Of a DNA stretch of 64,000 nucleotides, positions 54,386 through 64,000 are shown in pieces. Location: contig CBDDKV010000002.1 in assembly GCA_965230395.1 (NCBI GenBank), forward strand, positions 365,905 through 429,904, given 5' to 3'. The stretch's first letter is position 1. Each line of letters opens with the position of its first letter. Source of the stretch: Bacteroidales bacterium (GTDB taxonomy: Bacteria > Bacteroidota > Bacteroidia > Bacteroidales > UBA10428). The notes under the pieces are model-generated. The model saw only the letters and a program-made list of their open reading frames with translations, ran no database searches and was not told the DNA's origin. Position numbers and translations under genes: made by a program.

Positions 54386-54949
54386 ATGGAAGAAGAAATT
54401 CAATTATACCTTGACGACGCAAAAGAGAAAATGCAAAATGCTTTATCACACCTTGAAGACGAGCTCTTAAAGGTAAGAGCAGGTAAAGCGTCTCCCAGTC
54501 TCCTTGATGGTATTACTGTTGACTATTACGGAACAATGACTCCATTGAGCCAGGTTTCAAATATCAATACTCCGGATGCAAAAACAATTTCAGTACAACC
54601 ATGGGAAAAGGGAATGATTGAGCCCATTGAAAAAGCCATTTTAGCTTCAAATATCGGTTTAACTCCAATTAATAATGGTGAGTTAATCAGGATTAACATT
54701 CCACCATTAACTGAGGAGCGAAGAAAGGAATTGGTTAAGCAAATAAAGAACTTCGGAGAGAATACCAAGGTAAGTGTTAGAAGTGCGAGACGGGATGCAA
54801 ATGAAGCATTTAAAAAAATGCAGAAGGAAGGGTTATCTGAAGACCTGGAAAAAGATGCGGAGGCTAAAGTGCAGGACATGACAAATGAGTTTATTGGTAA
54901 AGTTGATAAAGTTCTTGAGGTTAAGGAAAAAGATATCATGACAATATAA
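54386..54949 (+). CDS. frr: Ribosome recycling factor
   Basis: RAGKA, VDYYG, PPLTEERRKELVK; TAttTTTG at 54353-60 upstream. Confidence 0.97.
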   Translation: MEEEIQLYLDDAKEKMQNALSHLEDELLKVRAGKASPSLLDGITVDYYGTMTPLSQVSNINTPDAKTISVQPWEKGMIEPIEKAILASNIGLTPINNGELIRINIPPLTEERRKELVKQIKNFGENTKVSVRSARRDANEAFKKMQKEGLSEDLEKDAEAKVQDMTNEFIGKVDKVLEVKEKDIMTI

Positions 54950-55000
54950 TTCATGAGATATCATATTTATCATATCCAATTATTCAAATAAGCTACTAGT

Positions 55001-55285
55001 ATGAAAAAAATAGTTTTTGCTTTTGGGATTTCAGTACTATTTATCTCCTGTAAAGGGGTAAGTCAGGAAGTAATTAATAAAATGGCAGACGAGATGTGCG
55101 AGGCCATGGAACTTCTCAATAGCGATAATCCTATGGGGGATATTGAGGCTGTAGGAGCAATCGTTAAGGTAAGGGAGAACGAAGAATACTCCGATGTGTC
55201 CGAGGAAGATTTAATAAAAGCAATGGAGAAGAATTGTCCTAAGGGGGCAGTAAAGATGAAAGACAATTACATGGAGGAAGAATAA
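55001..55285 (+). CDS. Small hypothetical lipoprotein
   Basis: MKK + hydrophobic stretch + FIS-C lipobox; two further Cys (MADEMCEAM..EKNCP). Confidence 0.75.
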   Translation: MKKIVFAFGISVLFISCKGVSQEVINKMADEMCEAMELLNSDNPMGDIEAVGAIVKVRENEEYSDVSEEDLIKAMEKNCPKGAVKMKDNYMEEE

Positions 55286-55400: not shown

Positions 55401-55433
55401 AAAAGAAAAGCCGCTAATTTAAGCAGCTTTTTT
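55401..55433 (-). terminator. Terminator of the Sia-like operon
   Basis: Minus strand aaaagctgct-taaatt-agcggcttttctttt, 30 nt after the 55463 stop. Confidence 0.65.
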
Positions 55434-55462: not shown

Positions 55463-55909
55463 CTAAAGCCTTTCTATAAATGACATTATACCGACAGCTT
55501 CTCCTGCCCGTCCTTCTTTAAAGGAGATAAAAATGTGATAAACCCCTGTTTTTTGACACTTAAAATCAAAAGAGGGATAATCTTTACCTGTATCGGCAAT
55601 ATATGTACTCCCTATCAGGTTGTTCATTTCAAAGAGTTGTAACATGGCTTCTCCGTCCGAGTCAGGAGCTGTACAAATTGTAAACCTGTAAGCCGTGTTT
55701 TTACTAAGTAGCATCGAGAATTTTGCCTGTGGAGGTTTTCCCCCGGGGGTACCTGCGTCAAGTTTTACGGGAAAATCTTTAAGATATGTAACATCTCCTG
55801 CACTGGCAGCACATTGCCCAACAAGTTCCATGTTGTCTTGAGAATGAAGTAGTTCAGGCAGCCCGAAAAAGAAAACTGAAATAAATAGTGCTCTTATTAA
55901 TTGTTTCAT
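55463..55909 (-). CDS. Small secreted hypothetical protein (probable beta-sandwich, 3 Cys)
   Basis: Sec-type signal peptide ending HS-Q; strand-like pattern 'LSKNTAYRFTIC..FDFKCQKTGVYHIFISF'. Confidence 0.8.
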   Translation of the reverse strand: MKQLIRALFISVFFFGLPELLHSQDNMELVGQCAASAGDVTYLKDFPVKLDAGTPGGKPPQAKFSMLLSKNTAYRFTICTAPDSDGEAMLQLFEMNNLIGSTYIADTGKDYPSFDFKCQKTGVYHIFISFKEGRAGEAVGIMSFIERL

Positions 55910-55990
55910 CAGATATTAATTTTAATAATCAAATGCTTTAATGATTCGAGAAGACTATGTGGTTTGAATAAGAGTCATCTTCTAAAAAAA

Positions 55991-56902
55991 TTAAAGGCTT
56001 ATTAACTTATTACGAATAGTTTCTGTCTTTTCAATAATGCTTACAACAAGTTCATCCGTCAATTCAATAATACTCACATCATTTTGAATAATAATCAGCG
56101 TGCCGTCCTTTTCAATTGCTTCGGGCTCGCCCTTCTGAATTGTTATTGAGACCTGTTTTAAATCTTCCTGCAAGATTGAAAGTTCTCTTATAAGGTCTTG
56201 AAAATACCGATCATCTTTATAGTTTTGAAGGAAAATCATAAGTTGGTCGAGAATGATTTTTTGCTCTCCAATTCTTTCTTTAAGTTCCGGGTGTGGTTTG
56301 TCGTTATAAACCTGTGTTGCAAGGTACATACCTTCAATCCAGACTCCTGCAACGATTAATACACTAAGGTTGGTCCTCTGGTTATTTCTTAAGTACCTGT
56401 CCATTTGGTTGAAACTTTGAACAGAAATCAGCATTAGCGAATCCAGGTTCTGGTTATTTTGGGCAAGCCGTTTAAGCGTTGTGAAATCAAAAAACTGGCC
56501 TACATTGATACCGTCTGAAAGGGTTTTTATAGCACTAATGTAATCAAGAACGGTGTTTGTTTTATTATACATGTTCAGATACCCTAAATCGGCACTGTAA
56601 ATACCAAGGTTAAAAGCTTGCTGAACATTTGTTGTAAAATCTTCTATTTTATCTGTATTTGCAAGATACCTGTTTGAAAAATCAACCTCCAGGTGTTTTA
56701 TGAGAGCGGCCATCTCTACCGGAGAAGACATATTGTCTATAAAACCTTCCATTATGTCTTGACCTATTTCTACTACTCCGTGTGTGCTGACGGTATCCGG
56801 AACATCTAATCCCTTACCGGAAGAACCTCCCTGATTTTTACAAGATCCGAAACTAAATAGCACCAACACGCCCAATAGCATATAAAAAGCATTCTTAACC
56901 AT
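55991..56902 (-). CDS. Helical lipoprotein of unknown function
   Basis: Lipobox FGS-C; 'SSPVEMA', 'AFNLGIYSADLGY', 'GVWIEGMY', 'RIGEQK'. Confidence 0.85.
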   Translation of the reverse strand: MVKNAFYMLLGVLVLFSFGSCKNQGGSSGKGLDVPDTVSTHGVVEIGQDIMEGFIDNMSSPVEMAALIKHLEVDFSNRYLANTDKIEDFTTNVQQAFNLGIYSADLGYLNMYNKTNTVLDYISAIKTLSDGINVGQFFDFTTLKRLAQNNQNLDSLMLISVQSFNQMDRYLRNNQRTNLSVLIVAGVWIEGMYLATQVYNDKPHPELKERIGEQKIILDQLMIFLQNYKDDRYFQDLIRELSILQEDLKQVSITIQKGEPEAIEKDGTLIIIQNDVSIIELTDELVVSIIEKTETIRNKLISL

Positions 56903-56979
56903 AGCGTTATAAAAATTAATCTAATAAATCGACCAAAAATCTATCTATAAATATATTAAAAATATGTATTCCTGAAAAT

Positions 56980-59900
56980 CTATTTTTTAGTTAGCTTTTC
57001 ACCAAATACGAGTAACCTTTTAAATACTTCGTAATACAGACTAAAATAAAGTATGCCCGTTAGTATCCATATCGCTACCATATTATAGCCAAATGTATCA
57101 AAATACCTGCCAAATAAAGGTTTACGAGGCGCATAAAAATGGGTGCGAATGTTAAACGGCTTAAGTACGATAGGATCCTGAAAAATTGGGTCTGTATGCT
57201 GAATAAGGTTGTTTTCGTATTCCAGGATTTTATTTTTTTCGTATACTTTCTTCAGGATGTCTGATATATTCTCATTATGATACCTGTCCCGTATTTCCTT
57301 ATATATCTCAGGACGGTGTTCCATCAGGTACGAAATTTTGTTTTGTCTGATTTGATTCGCAATCTGAAATACCTGGGTATAGTATTCATCCAACTGATCT
57401 ATATATTGGTGAACCTTTCTTCCTGCTTTGGAGTCAAATTTTTCAGGGGTCAAAGATTCAACACCTTCAAACATTACCGGCTTAGGGAAAGTGATTTTTT
57501 CCTTTTCTTCTTTTATTTTGTTTTCTTCCAGAACAATTTCAGACAGTTTGTTTTCTTCTCTGATTTCATTATAAATAACCTCAAGGTCATTTCTGGTTAT
57601 ATCTACCTGGTTAATATTCCGGAGTTCTTTATCAACCCTTTCCAGGCGTTCTCTTAATTCTGGTATTAGGTATACTTTTCTAAAGTCGGCTTTACTTTCG
57701 TCTTTTAGTAAAGGATAAAACTCTTTATTAAACTTGTTGTCTTTAAATTGCTTCACCATCAGGGCTTCATAGGACCACTTTGTAGGCATAAATTCAGCGA
57801 TAAATGGCACTTTATCTACCCGTCCTACAGTACGGTTAAGTTTGTCAAAACTAAACATGGCACCACTTAGGATCATCATCGGAATCATAACAAGCGGTAT
57901 AAGAATATAAATGGTAACAGCAGAGTCAAAAGTAGCTGAAATGTTAAGTCCCAGCATATTTGCGAAGGCGGCAGTTGAGAATAAAGCCAGCCAGTAGGAG
58001 AAATTCATGCCTTTTAATCCCAGAATGTTATTTCCAATTAACACAAACAGGAATGCCTGAATGGCACTTATAAGAAACAAGATGCCTATTTTGGAAAGAA
58101 GGTAACTGGATTTACTAAGGTTTAAGAACTTTTCCCGTTTCAGAATTTTTCGATCTTTAAAAATCTCTTCAGCGCTAACCATGAAACCGAGAAATAGAGC
58201 AACAATAAGAGCCATGAAAATATAGATGGAAATATTCTCATTTTCCCTAAAAATGTAAACCTTTGAGTTTGGATCTTCAATGTACCTTATGATATAAGAC
58301 AGAATAAATCCCAGAACCGGGGCTTCCAGTAAGTTGAGGGCGACATATTGTTTGTCCCCTATTTTTGACAAGAAATCCCGGATAGCATATATTCTAAATT
58401 GGGAAAACCAGTTTGGAATATTGAGTGATTTGGGAGGGCTTTCTTTAATTGCTTTTATTTCGTCGTGGAAGAAATTGTTTTGATAGTTTTCTTCCCATTT
58501 TTCAGGTGATACTTTTCTTGTATCGGTATAGTTACCGAATTCATCTACTACATGAGCTTCTATGATGTTGAACAACAATTCGGGATTAACATTACCACAG
58601 GTAGGGCACTCTCCGACATCACTGTTGATTTGGGCATCCATGCGTTTGAAGTACATTACGGCTTCAACAGGGTTGCCATAATATATTTGGTACCCTCCGG
58701 TATCCAGAATAATCATCTTGTCAAACATTTTGTATATGTCTGAAGATGGTTGATGGATAACCACAAATATTAATTTCCCTTTTAAGGCCAGCTCTCTTAG
58801 AAGATCCATTACATTTTCAGAATCTCTGGATGAAAGGCCCGAGGTGGGTTCATCGACAAAGAGAATGGATGGTTCCCGTATTAATTCGAGGGCGATATTT
58901 AGTCTTTTCCGCTGTCCTCCACTTATTGTTTTCTTAAGGGGGGAGCCCACTTTAAGGTCTTTTCTGTCATACAGTCCCAAACTTTGCAGGGTTTTATCCA
59001 CAAGGTCTGTAATATCCTTTTCAGATTTGTCTTTAAAGCAAAGTTTTGCATTAAAGTACAGGTTTTCAAAAACGGTTAATTCTTCGATTAAAAGGTCATC
59101 CTGTGGAATTAGACCGATGACACCTTCAAGTTTGTCTTTTTCGGTGTGTAAGTTTATATTGTTTATTAGAACGTCTCCGGTTGTTGGGGCTTCAATACTT
59201 GACAGGACATTAAGCAATGTTGTTTTTCCGGCCCCACTTGCTCCCATAATCCCAATTAGCCTTCCATGTCCTTCGGAAAAAGAAATATTTCTTAACCCGA
59301 GGTTCCCGTTAGGAAACTGAAAGCTAACATTCCGTACTGTATATGATATTTTACTCGATGTGATATCTGCCATGAAATGGGATACAACATCACTATAGTA
59401 AATAGGGGAGCCTTTAGGCAGTTTAACCGTACTACCATTGGCGAAAAGATATATTCGTTTGTTGCTTATCGGTAATCCATTAAGAAACAAATCTTCCTTT
59501 CCGGTATATTTTAAGAAGTAAAGATCAACGCTTTTTACCCTTAGCAAAAAGATGTTTGTATCAAGGTGCTTGGTATGTATGCGTTTCGCTTTTTCGTATC
59601 GCTCGTGTTTGTCGTTTATTATCAGGATATTATCATTGTCTAGCTCCGCCGATTCATTTTTGATAACAAACAGTTCAATACTCTGAAATTCTTCATGAGA
59701 AATATTAAATACTTCCGCAACGGTGTTAATAATTGCCATCCGCTGATCCGAAAATTTGCGGTCAACGTTAACAATTTCAAAAAGGCGTACAAGCGAAACA
59801 ACCTTTTGTTTCTGGGTTAGTGTTTTATTAATTTTTTTACATAATCCCAGAATTCGGACCGAATCTTTTACGGAAGTAAGTTTTCGTTTCTTCGGGGCAT

Positions 59901-60078
59901 CATCAGTAAGACCAGCATGCTTTTCAAACAGAGCAAAATATTCAGCTACTTTATCAGCAGTAATTTGCTGTTCCAGAAAGTTTTTTACATACTCAACCTG
60001 GGTTTTCTCAACACCTTCATCCTGCTTAGCTATTATAGCAAATAGCTGCATCAGCGCTTTCAGAATTTCTTCACTCAT
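56980..60078 (-). CDS. ABCG-type (NBD-TMD) ABC transporter with TerB-like N-terminal domain
   Basis: Walker A GASGAGKTT, ISGGQRKRLNIALEL, LFVDEPTSGL, VIHQPS; ABC2-type TMD C-terminal to the NBD; about 240-aa N-terminal extension. Confidence 0.88.
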   Translation of the reverse strand: MSEEILKALMQLFAIIAKQDEGVEKTQVEYVKNFLEQQITADKVAEYFALFEKHAGLTDDAPKKRKLTSVKDSVRILGLCKKINKTLTQKQKVVSLVRLFEIVNVDRKFSDQRMAIINTVAEVFNISHEEFQSIELFVIKNESAELDNDNILIINDKHERYEKAKRIHTKHLDTNIFLLRVKSVDLYFLKYTGKEDLFLNGLPISNKRIYLFANGSTVKLPKGSPIYYSDVVSHFMADITSSKISYTVRNVSFQFPNGNLGLRNISFSEGHGRLIGIMGASGAGKTTLLNVLSSIEAPTTGDVLINNINLHTEKDKLEGVIGLIPQDDLLIEELTVFENLYFNAKLCFKDKSEKDITDLVDKTLQSLGLYDRKDLKVGSPLKKTISGGQRKRLNIALELIREPSILFVDEPTSGLSSRDSENVMDLLRELALKGKLIFVVIHQPSSDIYKMFDKMIILDTGGYQIYYGNPVEAVMYFKRMDAQINSDVGECPTCGNVNPELLFNIIEAHVVDEFGNYTDTRKVSPEKWEENYQNNFFHDEIKAIKESPPKSLNIPNWFSQFRIYAIRDFLSKIGDKQYVALNLLEAPVLGFILSYIIRYIEDPNSKVYIFRENENISIYIFMALIVALFLGFMVSAEEIFKDRKILKREKFLNLSKSSYLLSKIGILFLISAIQAFLFVLIGNNILGLKGMNFSYWLALFSTAAFANMLGLNISATFDSAVTIYILIPLVMIPMMILSGAMFSFDKLNRTVGRVDKVPFIAEFMPTKWSYEALMVKQFKDNKFNKEFYPLLKDESKADFRKVYLIPELRERLERVDKELRNINQVDITRNDLEVIYNEIREENKLSEIVLEENKIKEEKEKITFPKPVMFEGVESLTPEKFDSKAGRKVHQYIDQLDEYYTQVFQIANQIRQNKISYLMEHRPEIYKEIRDRYHNENISDILKKVYEKNKILEYENNLIQHTDPIFQDPIVLKPFNIRTHFYAPRKPLFGRYFDTFGYNMVAIWILTGILYFSLYYEVFKRLLVFGEKLTKK

Positions 60079-60116
60079 TTAGTAGCTGGTTTAGTGACAA
60101 TTACTCTTGGTAGTTA

Positions 60117-60497
60117 TTATCCGGAATAAGGAACTTGCTCAAATGGAACATCTACAATATCAGCATATTCTTCTCCGGCTTCTTCCATATCTTCATCGTC
60201 TTCGGGGTAATGCCAGCGGATCAAAACATCGTTTCCTGCTTCATGTATTTCTTCGAGTTTCATTAGAATGTCAAGCAACAGTTTTGAAGAGGCGGTATTG
60301 AAATAAACGAGCTTAAAATTGAATACTGTTTTCCCATTAGGAGCGTCAGCATATTCATCAAGCCAGTTTAATATAGGTTCAAAAAAAGAAGCCACATCTT
60401 CGGGCAGGGAACGCCCTGATATCTCCATTACTTCATTATCCTTATCCAAAATCACTTTAGGAGTATCTTCTGTGCCCTGTATTTTTATTGTTTCCAT
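60117..60497 (-). CDS. siaC: SiaC-family (DUF1987) phosphoacceptor protein
   Basis: 126 aa; 'TPKV..GRSLPED..FFEPILNWL..YFNTASSK..WHY..DEDMEEAGEEY'; the Thr of the NT motif is residue 68. Confidence 0.88.
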   Translation of the reverse strand: METIKIQGTEDTPKVILDKDNEVMEISGRSLPEDVASFFEPILNWLDEYADAPNGKTVFNFKLVYFNTASSKLLLDILMKLEEIHEAGNDVLIRWHYPEDDEDMEEAGEEYADIVDVPFEQVPYSG

Positions 60498-60542
60498 AGC
60501 AACGATTATGTTTTTTATTATCTAGTACTTTTTTTTCAATAA

Positions 60543-61121
60543 TTATTCGTCTCTTCCAATGGTCGAAGTTAATAAAAAGAAGGAAGTATCATCGGATATT
60601 GGTAAGAAGTGGTATTCTAAATCGCGACCTGTTTTTCTTTTTATGTCGATAAACCCAAGACCGGCACCACCTTTTTCAGAAAGGCGCCCCTCCTTCATTT
60701 GCTTCTTATAAAGGGCCTTAAGTTCGTCTTTATTCATTTTATTGATATTCTCAAGCATTTCAGTGAGCTCTTCAATACGGTCATTATCTACAGCATTTCC
60801 GGTAGTCACACTATATTCGTTATCCCCTTTACTTACCAGGAAGATCCCTCTCCCGGAAAATAAGAAGTCGCTTGAAGTGAAGTCGTCTGCATGTTTACTG
60901 ATATTTTGCAGGCATTCGACCATAACGTGGAAAACTTTTCTTTGTACCGTGCCGGGTTCATCTTCTTTTGCCATATTTGACTCAGTTAATGAAGTAAAGG
61001 CCTTGGTAATCTGGTGGGTTATTTCTCCCTCATATACAAGAGTAATCTCATGCGCTTTCATGGATTTGTAGAACTCATAAACAAACTCCAGGAAACCTTT
61101 TACATCTTTTTTATTATCCAT
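60543..61121 (-). CDS. siaB: SiaB-family (DUF6272) GHKL protein kinase
   Basis: 'YEGEIT', N-box 'VMVECLQNISKH', G-box 'GGAGLGFIDIKRK'. Confidence 0.85.
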   Translation of the reverse strand: MDNKKDVKGFLEFVYEFYKSMKAHEITLVYEGEITHQITKAFTSLTESNMAKEDEPGTVQRKVFHVMVECLQNISKHADDFTSSDFLFSGRGIFLVSKGDNEYSVTTGNAVDNDRIEELTEMLENINKMNKDELKALYKKQMKEGRLSEKGGAGLGFIDIKRKTGRDLEYHFLPISDDTSFFLLTSTIGRDE

Positions 61122-61139
61122 AGTTTAACCGTTTTAATA

Positions 61140-63764
61140 TCAACTTAATTCAATACCGATAAGTAATACATCATCAATTTGTTTATTGTCGGCCATCCAT
61201 TTTTCAAAATCTTTTGCAAAAAAAGTATTAAATTCTTCCATTGTCAAGTTTTTATTCTCAACAATTTGTTCTCTGATTCTTCTGGGGGAGTATTTTTTTA
61301 TGTCTGGTCCCCCCAGTTGGTCGGGTAGCCCATCTGAGAAATAGAAAATTTTATCGCCTGTTTGATATTGTATTACATGATTAGTAAAGTCTTTTTCAAC
61401 TTTTTTTCTGTGTGGAATTCCTCCGATAGCCTTTCGATCTCCTTTGAATTCTTGTAATTCCCCGTTTCTTAGAAGGTACAAAGGACGGTGAGCCCCACTA
61501 TATTGAATCTCTTTTTTGTTTTTGTCAATCCTGCATAATGCTATGTCCATTCCGTCTCTTGCTTCCGCATTACTATGATCTTGTTTCAGGGTTGTTCGCA
61601 CACGGTGATGAAGTTCATCTAAAATGCTGGAGGCGGAATGTTCTTTATCGTGGTCCACAATGTTGTTTAACAGGAAGTATCCTATAAAAGACAAAAGTGC
61701 CCCCGGAACTCCGTGTCCCGTACAATCAACAGCCGCAATATAGGTAATATCTTCTTTTTGGAAAAACCAGGGAAAATCTCCACTAACCACGTCTCTCGGA
61801 CGGTAAAACATGAAAGATTCAGGAAGATACTCCCGTATTACCCTGTTATCGGGAAGAATAGAAGTCTGAATCCGTTGAGCATAGTTTATGGAATCTTCAA
61901 TTTTCCTGTTCTTATCCTGAATTTCCAGTTCTATTCTCTTGGCTTCTGTTATGTCGTGGCCAACAAAAAGAATGGTTTCCAGTTCGTTTTCATTAAATTC
62001 CGGTATGGCATCAAAGCTCATTATTCGTTCTTCTTTCTTACCTTCTTTAATAACAGGGATTGTTATTTCTGCATTAGCTTTTACCGGACTGTTTTTTATT
62101 TGTTCAATTGTTTCTCGAAAGTAGTTAAATAGTACTTCGGAGAATTCAACTTCATTTAGTGTTTTATTTATTAAATCCTGACTGTCAATTCCAAGATAAT
62201 CCTGGGTAACCGGGTTTGCGTAAAAGAACTGTCCAACAGTGCTTAACCGCATTATCATATCAAGGGAGTTTTCCGATAATGCCTGCATTTTGCTTCGCAT
62301 CCGTTCTTCCTTTTCGGCCCTTTTTCTTTCGGTTATGTCGGTTGAATTGAGGATAATCCCGTTTATTGCTTTATCGTGTAAGAGGTTACGGCCTGTAGTT
62401 TCAAGGTATATTTTCTGGCCGTTCTTTTTCATGTATGTATACTGGATAGTAACAGGCTGCTTGGGTTTTTCAATAAGTTGATTGAACATATCCCGCATGG
62501 CTGTTTCCCCTTTTCTGGTTAGGCGGTCCATATCTTTACCGCTCATCATTTCTTCAGGTGTATATCCAAGGATGCTGACTACAGAGGGGCTCTCGTAGAT
62601 AATTTGGAAGTCTCTATTGTATATTGATATAATCTCGGATGCATTTTCAAGGAGAGAGTGGAGTCTTTTTTGGGCATCTTCCACCTTCTGGATATTTGCT
62701 TCGAGCTGTTCATTTGATTTTTGAAGCTCTTCCTGGGTTGCCCTCATTTCTTCTGCATTCTGCCTTAACTGCTCTTCATTTTCCTGAAGTTCGGCCGTCA
62801 TTTTCTGGGCTTCCTGAAGAAGTTTCTCTGTCCGGCTGTTTACCTTAAGGTTAAAAACAGTTCGGGCAATTACTTCACCCAGTTCTTTAAGAAACCGTAT
62901 GGTTAATTCGTCTAATTTTTCTTTAATGGAAGCAAATTCTATAACACCATGCAGTTTTTCATCGGCGATAAGGGGAACGAGTAATATGCTTTTGGGTTTT
63001 TGTTCTCCTAATATACCGGAAGTGATTGTTGTATAATTATCAGGAATTTCTGTCCGGTAGATATAATCCATTTCGTAAGCACACTCGCCAATTAAACCAT
63101 GTCCGATTTTAAATTCCTGGTTTACAAATTTTTTTCTGTTATAGGCATAGGTGGCTACGTTTCTAAGAATTTTCTTCTCATCATCATAGATATACATAGC
63201 CCCCTGAACAACGTTAAGATATTTTACAAGCTCATGTATTACCTTTACAGATAGTTCTTCAACCTTGTTGTGTTTCCTAAGAATATCGGAAACAACTTCT
63301 TTTCCTTCAGCTATCCAGCTTTGTTGTGTTTCCTTTTCGTTGTTCTCAGACAGGTTATCACGCATTAGTAAAAGTGACTGGGCTAATACGTTATTGTATT
63401 TATCGGTGTTAAGTGTTGAGTTGAAATTCCCTTCTCCAATTTGCTTTGCGAATTCAGCCATGGTGTCCATGAGCTCTTCCCGCTTCTTAATTTCTTGTTT
63501 AAAATTGTCTTTTTCGGCTTTTTTCTGAATCATAAGAACAATCACAAGAGCATATGCAACAAACGGGAAAATATCAATTAAAAGAAGTGATGGACTAGTC
63601 TGGTGAATATTTACAATCCCACTAAATGTAATAGGTGTTTTGGTTGTAACAAATTGGACAACCCACGAAAAGAATATGAATATAATTCCAAGGGATAAAA
63701 CCAAATGAGACAGATTTGTCTGACTTTCTGTTAGTTTATTGAATATGTTTTTATTGTCCTTCAT
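61140..63764 (-). CDS. SiaA-like membrane PP2C/SpoIIE phosphatase (2TM-HAMP-like-GAF-coiled coil-PAS-PAS-PP2C)
   Basis: YAQRIQ, VSGDF, DCTGHGVPGA, DGMD, FSDGLPDQ and DDVLL PPM motifs; GAF 'GHGLIGECA'; two 'DITE' PAC ends. Confidence 0.9.
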   Translation of the reverse strand: MKDNKNIFNKLTESQTNLSHLVLSLGIIFIFFSWVVQFVTTKTPITFSGIVNIHQTSPSLLLIDIFPFVAYALVIVLMIQKKAEKDNFKQEIKKREELMDTMAEFAKQIGEGNFNSTLNTDKYNNVLAQSLLLMRDNLSENNEKETQQSWIAEGKEVVSDILRKHNKVEELSVKVIHELVKYLNVVQGAMYIYDDEKKILRNVATYAYNRKKFVNQEFKIGHGLIGECAYEMDYIYRTEIPDNYTTITSGILGEQKPKSILLVPLIADEKLHGVIEFASIKEKLDELTIRFLKELGEVIARTVFNLKVNSRTEKLLQEAQKMTAELQENEEQLRQNAEEMRATQEELQKSNEQLEANIQKVEDAQKRLHSLLENASEIISIYNRDFQIIYESPSVVSILGYTPEEMMSGKDMDRLTRKGETAMRDMFNQLIEKPKQPVTIQYTYMKKNGQKIYLETTGRNLLHDKAINGIILNSTDITERKRAEKEERMRSKMQALSENSLDMIMRLSTVGQFFYANPVTQDYLGIDSQDLINKTLNEVEFSEVLFNYFRETIEQIKNSPVKANAEITIPVIKEGKKEERIMSFDAIPEFNENELETILFVGHDITEAKRIELEIQDKNRKIEDSINYAQRIQTSILPDNRVIREYLPESFMFYRPRDVVSGDFPWFFQKEDITYIAAVDCTGHGVPGALLSFIGYFLLNNIVDHDKEHSASSILDELHHRVRTTLKQDHSNAEARDGMDIALCRIDKNKKEIQYSGAHRPLYLLRNGELQEFKGDRKAIGGIPHRKKVEKDFTNHVIQYQTGDKIFYFSDGLPDQLGGPDIKKYSPRRIREQIVENKNLTMEEFNTFFAKDFEKWMADNKQIDDVLLIGIELS

Positions 63765-63769
63765 AAAGT

Positions 63770-64000
63770 CTACGACCTAATAGTTTGTGATACTTTTTCT
63801 GATATTTTCTTCAAAGCACCTTCTAACACCAATTTGTCTGTTTCATCAAAATTAGAAAAAGAAGCTAATTCAAAAACACATAAAACACCAGAGTTTAGAA
63901 CAACTGGTGCTATTATTAGTTCTTTAGGTTTTGCTTCACCTAATCCTGACTCAATTTTAAAGTATTCTTCAGGTATGTCGGAAATATAAGAAATTTCGCC
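63770..64000 (-). CDS. 3' end of a GAF-domain protein (truncated by window edge; absent from ORF track)
   Basis: Open frame GEISYISDIPEEYFKIESGLGEAKPKELIIAPVVLNSGVLCVFELASF...TIRS*, ending 5 nt before the phosphatase ATG. Confidence 0.85.
   Translation of the reverse strand, partial: GEISYISDIPEEYFKIESGLGEAKPKELIIAPVVLNSGVLCVFELASFSNFDETDKLVLEGALKKISEKVSQTIRS

Follow-up and report, generated by a model that had tools for sequence, protein, structure and literature searches.

A SiaABC-like partner switch in a GGDEF-free Bacteroidales genome and its predicted contact with the TerB domain of an ABCG-type transporter

The stretch of DNA analysed here, which we call the window, consists of 64,000 nt of the forward strand of a Bacteroidales genome (assembly GCA_965230395.1, contig CBDDKV010000002.1, positions 365,905 to 429,904; G000:C2:365905-429904 in our numbering), and its last part carries a SiaABC-like partner switch together with an ABCG-type transporter and two exported proteins. 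Seven open reading frames (ORFs) lie on the minus strand within 55463-64000, separated, from 5' to 3' along the operon, by 5, 18, 45, 38, 77 and 81 nt. They encode a GAF protein, a SiaA-like phosphatase, a SiaB-family kinase, a SiaC-family phosphoprotein, the transporter, a lipoprotein that we refer to as Lipo303 and a small exported protein that we refer to as Sec148 (Table 1). A terminator-like hairpin starts 32 nt past the stop codon of the last gene. An earlier note, made from the letters of this DNA alone, had described seven co-oriented genes with small gaps and one terminator, and we could confirm this layout, with gaps of 5-81 nt and a single strong hairpin; the remaining 12 matches of the terminator scan are at chance level (13 found versus 10.0 +/- 2.8 in shuffled sequences), as are the matches of a promoter scan (56 found versus 44.4 +/- 8.4), which was of the sigma-70 type only and may not suit this organism. 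Two of its gene labels were right as far as they went: the first gene does encode a GAF protein, of which the window holds only the last 76 of 258 amino acids (aa), and the second does encode a SpoIIE/PP2C domain, in a protein that is itself also a GAF-PAS-PAS protein.

What did not stand was the limit of seven genes. In the flanking locus L024 (C2:420000-439999; an L024 position plus 54095 gives the window position), the co-oriented run does not stop at the window edge: four further genes follow, spaced by 4, 12, 17 and 0 nt, and we therefore take the unit to comprise about eleven genes. These four encode a CheB methylesterase, a first CheR, a sensor in which two transmembrane (TM) helices flank an outside domain of about 250 aa and which also has a GAF domain, and a second CheR; the PF01739 matches of the CheR pair have E values of 4.8e-25 and 1.6e-37. 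The second CheR is followed by a divergent carbamoyltransferase gene. The earlier note had allowed that a GGDEF enzyme or another effector might lie just past the window edge; Pfam searches found none among the genes there, and the region instead holds the remainder of the GAF protein, CheB, the two CheR proteins and the GAF sensor.

Table 1. Features of the operon and its upstream extension. Positions are those of the window unless given for locus L024.
Feature	Position	Strand	Basis or remark
C-terminal 76 aa of 258-aa two-TM GAF protein	63770-64000	-	gene truncated by window edge
SiaA-like phosphatase, 874 aa, membrane-anchored	61140-63764	-	2 TM, GAF, heptad helix, PAS, PAS, PP2C
Heptad 'signalling helix' of phosphatase, candidate CheR/CheB substrate	62715-62813	-	EExxA[ST]-type site NAEEMRAT
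SiaB-family GHKL protein kinase, 192 aa	60543-61121	-	DUF6272, SiaB_fam_kinase
SiaC-family phosphoprotein, 126 aa	60117-60497	-	Pfam SiaC/DUF1987
Thr68 codon of SiaC	60294-60296	-	YFNTASSK motif read at 60282-60308
ABCG-type half transporter, 1032 aa	56980-60078	-	TerB, unclassified domain, nucleotide-binding domain, six TM helices, large periplasmic loop
TerB-like N-terminal cytoplasmic domain of transporter (aa 1-135), predicted SiaC docking site	59674-60078	-	Pfam and complex prediction
Transporter segment LTSVKDSVRILG (aa 67-78), core of predicted SiaC interface	59845-59880	-	translation
Periplasmic TM5-TM6 loop of transporter (aa 743-995)	57094-57852	-	hydrophobicity and charge
Lipoprotein Lipo303, 303 aa, unnamed family	55991-56902	-	signal peptide, Cys21
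Small exported beta-sandwich protein Sec148, 148 aa	55463-55909	-	signal peptide, model
Terminator-like hairpin at operon end	55406-55431 (L024 1336-1311)	-	10-pair stem, 4 G-C pairs, T run
CheB methylesterase, 186 aa, no receiver	L024 10456-11016	co-oriented with operon	PF01339, 3.9e-50
CheR, 273 aa	L024 11029-11850	co-oriented with operon	PF01739
TM sensor, 731 aa	L024 11868-14063	co-oriented with operon	GAF and heptad helix
Second CheR, 279 aa	L024 14064-14903	co-oriented with operon	PF01739

The identification of the three switch proteins, SiaC with its Thr68, a GHKL kinase and a PP2C phosphatase, was upheld by Pfam and NCBIfam. The 126-aa protein matches PF09345 (SiaC/DUF1987) with an E value of 1.7e-42, and its profile aligns end to end, threonine on threonine, with the Pseudomonas aeruginosa SiaC chains of the PDB (6KKO_C, 6K4F and 7E6G, and also 6KKP; E 1.8e-20); the residues from Y65 to K72, Thr68 included, are invariant in 73 sequences. 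Since it does not reach the cut-off of the NCBIfam equivalog of P. aeruginosa (90.4 versus 150 bits), we regard it as a member of the SiaC family and not as an orthologue. The 192-aa kinase matches DUF6272 (5.3e-43) and NF038262, SiaB_fam_kinase (175 bits versus a cut-off of 85), and its N-box and GGAGLG box are conserved in 73 sequences; it also matches chain 6KKO_A of the PDB (6.6e-13), an entry that contains a SiaC chain as well. In the 874-aa phosphatase, which has TM helices at residues 21-39 and 61-79, Pfam finds GAF_2 (8.7e-14), PAS folds and SpoIIE/PP2C (3.5e-18), and the acidic motifs of the PP2C domain are kept in 65 orthologues. The SiaA model NF038263 covers only the C-terminal 260 aa of this protein (3.8e-49, 167.8 bits versus an equivalog cut-off of 700), the sensor half being built differently.

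SiaC-type (DUF1987) proteins are widespread, and to our knowledge their single known target is the diguanylate cyclase SiaD. The gene that follows siaC in the window encodes a transporter, and a search for GGDEF domains (PF00990) gave no match in the genome itself, which is 98.04% complete, with a control that was positive in 8/14 genomes, nor in any of five other genomes that carry the cluster or a paralogous cluster. The whole-genome search that the earlier note had proposed thus came out as it expected. Its more general statement, that Bacteroidota largely lack the enzymes of cyclic di-GMP (c-di-GMP) metabolism, holds for the class to which the window belongs, where in families of the same order or the same class 2/49 genomes have a GGDEF match, one of them weak (E 6.4e-4), and fails for the phylum, in which 109 of the 201 genomes sampled have one. 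The phylum is therefore not uniformly free of c-di-GMP enzymes. In one large family of another class (f25), 38 of 39 genomes have a GGDEF match, usually one per genome.

The 1032-aa protein had been called an ABC transporter of the ABCG type; this is confirmed, and a TerB domain at its N-terminus was found in addition. Pfam matches are to TerB (5.7e-08, aa 8-134), ABC_tran (2.8e-30, aa 262-413) and ABC2_membrane (8.9e-24, aa 560-778), the nucleotide-binding domain (NBD) preceding the ABC-2 membrane domain, and the best NCBIfam match is ABCG/White (TIGR00955, 2.5e-79 over aa 238-785), below the subfamily cut-off. The residues of the Walker A, signature, Walker B and H-loop motifs are invariant in 73 sequences. 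By hydrophobicity and charge the protein has six TM helices, at 579-597, 616-634, 664-682, about 695-717, 719-741 and 996-1019, and the 743-995 loop should lie outside the cytoplasm because lysine and arginine are over-represented ahead of TM1, between TM2 and TM3 and in the tail at the C-terminus. This loop is the least conserved part of the protein, with a median identity among orthologues of 38%, against 72% for TerB, 81% for the NBD and 75% for the membrane domain, and its profile found nothing below E 0.9 among PDB sequences. At least 120 homologues share 68-86% identity with the transporter; most come from Bacteroidales metagenome bins, and nearly all are about 1000-1070 aa long with the same domains. 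For the segment between TerB and the NBD (aa 136-246), an FHA domain was considered and dropped as unsupported, 0/37 members having a Pfam FHA match at E <= 10; the best PDB profile match of the segment (E 0.5) is a chain named meiosis-specific kinase MEK1, presumably an FHA domain, and in an Atlas search the matches, none above 0.85, were to clusters without a name or to TerB clusters.

The two exported proteins are a lipoprotein and a small secreted protein, as had been proposed: both have signal peptides, and in Lipo303 Cys21 is invariant (69 sequences). Neither matches a Pfam or NCBIfam family. Lipo303 is modelled with a mean predicted local distance difference test (pLDDT) score of 84.3 as a bundle of helices accompanied by a sheet of four strands and a helix at the C-terminus; Foldseek against the PDB gave a best E value of 0.69, a wide VIA-align search a best Z score of 7.6, which is in the noise range for helical bundles, and the profile found nothing below E 0.25 among PDB sequences. 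Its family is large, with 3014 clusters at 50% identity (E <= 1e-3). Sec148, in which Gln24 and Cys33 are invariant (65 sequences), is modelled with a pLDDT of 91.8 as all-beta beyond its leader, and Foldseek finds sandwiches of the PPC, PliG and GOLD types at E 1.5e-4 to 9e-4; this beta sandwich is common, and the fold names no function. Gln24 is the residue right behind the predicted signal peptide, and recalls the preference reported for Bacteroidetes for glutamine after the signal peptidase I site.

Conservation of this arrangement was examined in a scan of one genome per species, in which the best 80 of 567 transporter relatives (transporter identity 55-86%) were taken with 10-kb flanks and their six-frame ORFs scored against the operon proteins, counts being restricted to loci with enough flank. 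SiaC is directly upstream of the transporter in 74/76 loci, the exceptions being L097 and L103, and SiaB (72/73), PP2C (66/67), CheB (61/62) and the 273-aa CheR (59/61) are about as regular, counts which are not independent, since the 80 loci belong to related lineages and their gene order is partly inheritance. The 258-aa GAF protein was scored in 62/67 loci (three of the five misses do have the ORF, which scored best as the other GAF protein of the operon), the 279-aa CheR in 50/55 and the 731-aa sensor in 34/55. Downstream, the lipoprotein is found in 67/72 loci, a 68th (L044) having it after a frame-split transporter, and the small protein follows the lipoprotein gene in 65/69. Three Flavobacteriia-type loci (L096, L100 and L101) retain SiaABC and the transporter and have no lipoprotein or small-protein gene that our profiles detect within 10 kb, and L103 has the transporter, the lipoprotein and the small protein with no Sia genes nearby. 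The gene content and its conservation are secure; a lack of conservation next to siaABC, which the earlier note had named as grounds for giving up its proposal, is not what these genomes show.

The second line of evidence is a predicted complex, which the earlier note had also suggested. SiaC (alignment of 72 rows) was modelled with residues 1-545 of the transporter (73 rows), the alignments being unpaired, and the prediction passed with a median interface score (ipSAE) of 0.64, all three controls, and so the best of them, scoring 0.00. The mark used is reached by 58/80 solved complexes and 2/110 mismatched pairs, a calibration that applies roughly to our own alignments. Between runs at least 98% of contacts are shared, and the partner is modelled with a pLDDT of 90 or more. 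The predicted interface comprises residues 63, 65-72, 75, 102-104, 106-108, 110-111 and 113-114 of SiaC and residues 67-78, 81, 112, 115-116, 118-119 and 122-123 of the transporter, all of the latter in the TerB domain, and no confident contact was predicted in the NBD (aa 247-480). Thr68 is at the centre of the interface, where it touches Ser73 of the transporter. Of the interface residues of SiaC, Y65 to K72, L75, E102 to M104, A107, G108, E110, Y111 and I114 are invariant in 73 sequences, as are D72, S73, V74, Q112, R113, I116 and T119 at the interface of the transporter, in which L67, T68, S69, V70, L77 and G78 are at least 90% conserved. The contact as modelled is thus made by residues that are among the most conserved of both proteins. 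Entry 7E6G, we take it, is the SiaC-SiaD complex, and we know of no solved complex of SiaC with a TerB domain, though not every entry was checked; it therefore seems unlikely that the prediction passed on a memorised structure.

The N-terminal 250 aa of the transporter are found in 13/401 sampled genomes of the phylum, that of the window included, which has five TerB-ABCG paralogues. Twenty further loci of such paralogues or of distant orthologues were scored with profiles and Pfam. A lipoprotein-family gene adjoins the transporter in 16/20 of them, for which reason we consider the transporter and the lipoprotein to be the core pair; this module also occurs without Sia genes. Of two small ORFs that follow the lipoprotein gene at paralogous loci in the genome of the window, one may be distantly related to Sec148 (hhalign probability 53%, E 1.4e-4) and the other is not. 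SiaC adjoins the transporter in 8/20 loci, in several arrangements. In L150, L153 and L156 it is co-directional and upstream, with the full input module. In L151, L162 and L164 a SiaB-SiaC pair is convergent on the 3' end of the transporter gene, and in L163 SiaC alone occupies that position. In L159 (G363:C11:462221-475821) PP2C, two SiaB-family DUF6272 kinases, SiaC and a 365-aa protein with a C-terminal SiaC domain of 120 aa precede the transporter in this order. By these gene orders the transporter is a hub to which the Sia module or the lipoprotein module attaches. A second transporter of the genome that carries L159 (L160) has the motif described below at the interface positions and no Sia genes beside it. 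In the genome of the window, a paralogous TerB-ABCG transporter with a lipoprotein-family gene (L149, G000:C2:4844715-4858315) has another signalling module directly upstream on the same strand, made up of a multi-PAS histidine kinase of 1792 aa, which also has receivers, and a receiver-histidine kinase of 404 aa.

The genes past the window edge suggest how the switch might be fed. In the phosphatase the GAF domain ends near residue 301 and is followed by a heptad segment at about residues 318-350, most positions of which are at least 90% conserved in 65 orthologues; the 731-aa sensor has a very similar segment at about residues 585-615, after a GAF domain at 431-564, which contains MEELKAT. 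Both segments contain Glu-Glu-x-x-Ala-Thr, and Glu-Glu-x-x-Ala-Ser/Thr is the classical consensus of CheR sites. A regular expression for three such heptads has 13 matches in 12 frames genome-wide: five in frames that also have an MCPsignal match, two in a 1457-aa CheB-CheR fusion, one in the phosphatase and five in other proteins, of which three carry a closely similar segment. The organism, a member of the Bacteroidales, has a sizeable set of chemoreceptors: 22 matches to MCPsignal fall in about 20 genes, and one of these is on a second contig of 130 kb. It also has a separate CheR, so that the CheR and CheB of the operon are extra copies. Three large ORFs with a phosphatase-like heptad segment (G000:C2:1776233-1779568, 4065381-4068059 and 5474756-5476423) may be further substrates of the CheR and CheB of the operon, or of the CheB-CheR fusion (C2:4379990-4384360). 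A precedent is known from Bacillus cereus, in which the sensor RsbK, acting ahead of a PP2C partner switch, is methylated by the CheR-like RsbM in the 'signalling helix' that comes next to its GAF domain (PMC4574943).

Taken together, these observations make it fairly probable, in our opinion, that the transporter is gated by unphosphorylated SiaC bound to its TerB domain, in an operon that joins an input, a switch and an output module. On the input side there would be three membrane-anchored GAF proteins, one of them the SiaA-like phosphatase, with the two CheR proteins and CheB; CheR would methylate, and CheB demethylate, glutamates of the heptad helices of the phosphatase and the 731-aa sensor, and this methylation, which probably tunes the input, would set phosphatase activity adaptively. 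In the switch, the SiaB-family kinase would phosphorylate Thr68 of SiaC and the PP2C phosphatase would remove the phosphate, as in P. aeruginosa, where, according to PMC8457831, phosphorylation of SiaC precludes its binding to SiaD; the authors of that paper also suggest that DUF1987 proteins may act as modulators of the proteins adjacent to them. At the output, the Thr68 face of unphosphorylated SiaC would dock on the TerB-like domain and phosphorylation of Thr68 would break the contact; that only the unphosphorylated form should bind the pump is suggested by the position of Thr68 in the middle of the predicted interface. Binding would alter the activity of the transporter, in either direction. 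The transporter with its periplasmic loop of 250 aa, the lipoprotein and Sec148 would move what is probably a hydrophobic envelope component, with no involvement of c-di-GMP; the combination of a pump with an outside loop, a lipoprotein and a periplasmic sandwich suggests, at the level of gene content, that such a component is handed over between them. The suggestion of a c-di-GMP-independent Sia system with a transporter or envelope output, which the earlier note had put forward, is thus supported by the synteny, by the absence of GGDEF proteins and by the predicted complex.

A number of points weigh against this explanation. The score of the predicted complex, which supports the binding of SiaC to the cytoplasmic N-terminus of the transporter, is a model confidence and no measurement, and the complex was modelled without phosphorylation and from alignments outside the calibration set. 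The conserved gene order, as said, is partly inherited, and co-transcription of the operon is itself deduced only from the short spacing of its genes and the one terminator that closes it. Across paralogues, 9/9 transporters with an adjacent SiaC and 1/12 without one have the motif S..(.)SV[KR].L at the interface positions, a contrast that is post hoc, since the sequences had been looked at before the motif was defined, and that is drawn from related sequences, so that it serves as a pointer only. L097 and L103, which have no adjacent SiaC, keep most of the interface segment, and no relaxation of the TerB domain was seen in these two loci. On the input side, no protein of the operon matches MCPsignal (PF00015), and the glutamates of the phosphatase and the 731-aa sensor are candidate sites for reversible methylation by CheR and CheB, proposed by analogy. 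Lipo303 is without a recognisable fold relative. Finally, SiaC-family matches number 17 in the genome, at 16 loci (L009-L024), and some of these SiaC paralogues are orphans beside unrelated genes, with no evident partner, so that adjacency to SiaC does not always name the target; in the tree that addressed whether transporter-linked SiaC proteins form one clade, 21/33 inner branches are unresolved.

Several of these points would fit a link that is transcriptional only, in which the genes are co-expressed for one response, SiaC acts on the phosphatase, the kinase, a GAF protein or some other protein, and the predicted contact is a false positive. Mismatched pairs do occasionally reach the calibration mark (2/110, as given above), some SiaC paralogues adjoin unrelated genes, SiaC is not found near 12/20 of the paralogous transporters, and L103 shows that the transporter, the lipoprotein and the small protein can stand together without Sia genes nearby. 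We nevertheless judge this explanation unlikely: the adjacency of SiaC to the transporter survives inversion, in L151, L162 and L164 together with SiaB and in L163 without it, and cannot be put down to co-transcription where the genes are convergent; furthermore, the predicted interface falls on invariant residues of both proteins, the phosphorylation site included, and every control scored 0.00.

It is also conceivable, though in our estimation rather improbable, that the transporter is the sensor, its transport state being relayed through TerB so that SiaC is sequestered or released and free SiaC acts on a target elsewhere, in the manner of flux-sensing ABC transporters that signal to kinases. 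The predicted contact is silent on the direction in which information flows, the 17 SiaC genes and five TerB-ABCG paralogues of the genome make cross-talk possible, and the PAS-histidine-kinase-receiver pair upstream of the paralogous transporter of L149 could be another pairing of a sensor with a transporter. Against this, the operon is already rich in sensory input (three GAF proteins, PAS domains, CheR and CheB) and has no other output domain, and no gene for a DNA-binding protein, a sigma factor, a cyclase or a further enzyme is conserved in the cluster over the 80 loci. A juxtaposition by chance or an annotation artefact, with no functional coupling at all, has nothing in its favour except the general point that gene order may simply be inherited, and is so improbable as to need little discussion, being already contradicted by an order that recurs in 74/76 loci with transporter identities down to 55%, by gaps of 0-81 nt with a single terminator and by the strong family matches or conserved orthologues of all the ORFs.

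To return to the gating of the transporter by SiaC, we would put forward a more far-reaching form of it tentatively, as possible and open to considerable doubt: a chemotaxis-like adaptation unit, with two CheR proteins and CheB working on a methylatable helix, would be wired directly to a TM PP2C phosphatase, and the SiaB/SiaC switch would gate an ABC exporter post-translationally, with unphosphorylated SiaC clamped on TerB and Thr68 buried. Since paralogues of SiaC adjoin genes for a MacB-like permease, MscS, TauE and AI-2E proteins, the phospho-dependent regulation of membrane transport may moreover be a general role of SiaC proteins in Bacteroidia that have no GGDEF domain. In these loci, all in the genome of the window, SiaB-SiaC is followed by a MacB-like FtsX permease (L017), SiaC by an MscS channel (L020) and two SiaC genes by a TauE exporter (L021), and SiaC is convergent with an AI-2E transporter (L023).

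The system closest to the operon is SiaABCD. The order PP2C, SiaB-family kinase, DUF1987 phosphoprotein, with an output gene directly after siaC, is the same, the Thr68 motif is kept, and the Thr68 face of unphosphorylated SiaC, for which binding to a partner is described in the case of SiaD (PMC8457831), is predicted to bind a partner here. In contrast to SiaABCD, there is no GGDEF protein in the genome, the gene after siaC encodes a TerB-ABCG transporter, the sensor part of the phosphatase is composed of two TM helices, GAF, a heptad helix and two PAS domains, and a CheR/CheB/GAF input module is added. The module would work as SiaABC does, but for want of a SiaD we do not call the operon a SiaABCD system. 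DUF1987/SiaC proteins are described as structurally related to STAS domains (PMC8457831), which invites comparison with the phospholipid transporter MlaFEDB of Escherichia coli, in which MlaB, a STAS protein, contacts the ABC ATPase MlaF through an interface centred on Thr52, a contact that is weakened by a phosphomimetic (PMC7367683). In both cases a small STAS-type protein sits, or is predicted to sit, on the cytoplasmic part of an ABC transporter with a phosphorylatable threonine in a central position. Whereas MlaB contacts the NBD and has no known kinase or phosphatase, the contact predicted here is on the extra TerB domain, a dedicated kinase and phosphatase are encoded alongside, and the transporter is of the ABCG and not of the MlaE type.

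Two other systems share parts of the design. In Mycobacterium tuberculosis, Rv1747 is an ABC exporter under Ser/Thr phosphorylation by PknF, a kinase of the same operon, and has, like the transporter described here, extra N-terminal regulatory domains (PMC3138270 and PMC3908365). These are FHA domains, and Rv1747 is itself phosphorylated by a Hanks-type kinase, whereas in our operon there is no detectable FHA domain, the phosphorylated protein would be the separate SiaC and the kinase is of the GHKL type. In the RsbK-RsbM-RsbY-RsbW-RsbV system of B. cereus, a CheR-type methyltransferase acts on a helix right behind the GAF domain of a membrane sensor, which lies upstream of a PP2C/kinase switch (PMC4574943); the operon likewise combines CheR-like genes with conserved coiled-coil helices behind GAF domains. 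The methylated protein there is a histidine kinase that signals to a receiver-PP2C, with no known paired methylesterase and with sigma B as the output, while here the helix is in the PP2C protein and in a sensor with no enzyme domain, CheB is encoded and the output is no sigma factor. With chemotaxis systems the operon has in common the catalytic domains of CheR (PF01739) and CheB (PF01339) and the Glu-Glu heptads in a coiled coil; it differs in being without MCPsignal, CheA and CheW and in a CheB of 186 aa without a receiver.

A literature search of limited extent found no paper that describes SiaC/DUF1987 with an ABC transporter, or this cluster. The replacement of the target gene by one for an ABC transporter in GGDEF-free organisms gives the SiaC family a defined and testable second output. 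In PMC7367683, which describes the structure of MlaFB, the authors leave open whether phosphorylation of the STAS type regulates an ABC transporter, and the operon, which supplies a kinase, a phosphatase, a phosphorylation site and a predicted interface, makes this question directly testable. Beyond this, the operon indicates a role for TerB, a domain that is poorly understood, ties methylation by CheR and CheB to a PP2C phosphatase and defines a highly conserved transporter-lipoprotein pair, the transporter being 55-86% identical across 80 species and the family of the lipoprotein having about 3000 clusters. If the gating proposed here is true, it would be the first case in nature of an ABC transporter controlled by a STAS-like phosphoprotein that has a kinase and a phosphatase of its own, the first function of a TerB domain as a docking platform and a new way of switching a membrane pump, by the docking of a small phosphoprotein on it.

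Two observations concern the surroundings of the operon. About 12 kb before the start of the window lies a second complete Sia-like set (L011, G000:C2:345565-361900), with genes for a receiver-PP2C, a TPR-PP2C, a DUF6272 kinase and SiaC on one strand and no evident output gene after them. Two plus-strand genes at 54386-55285 converge on the 3' end of the operon, one for a ribosome recycling factor (4.1e-66) and one an ORF of 94 aa that matches no family, with a terminator-like hairpin of their own at L024 1224-1255.

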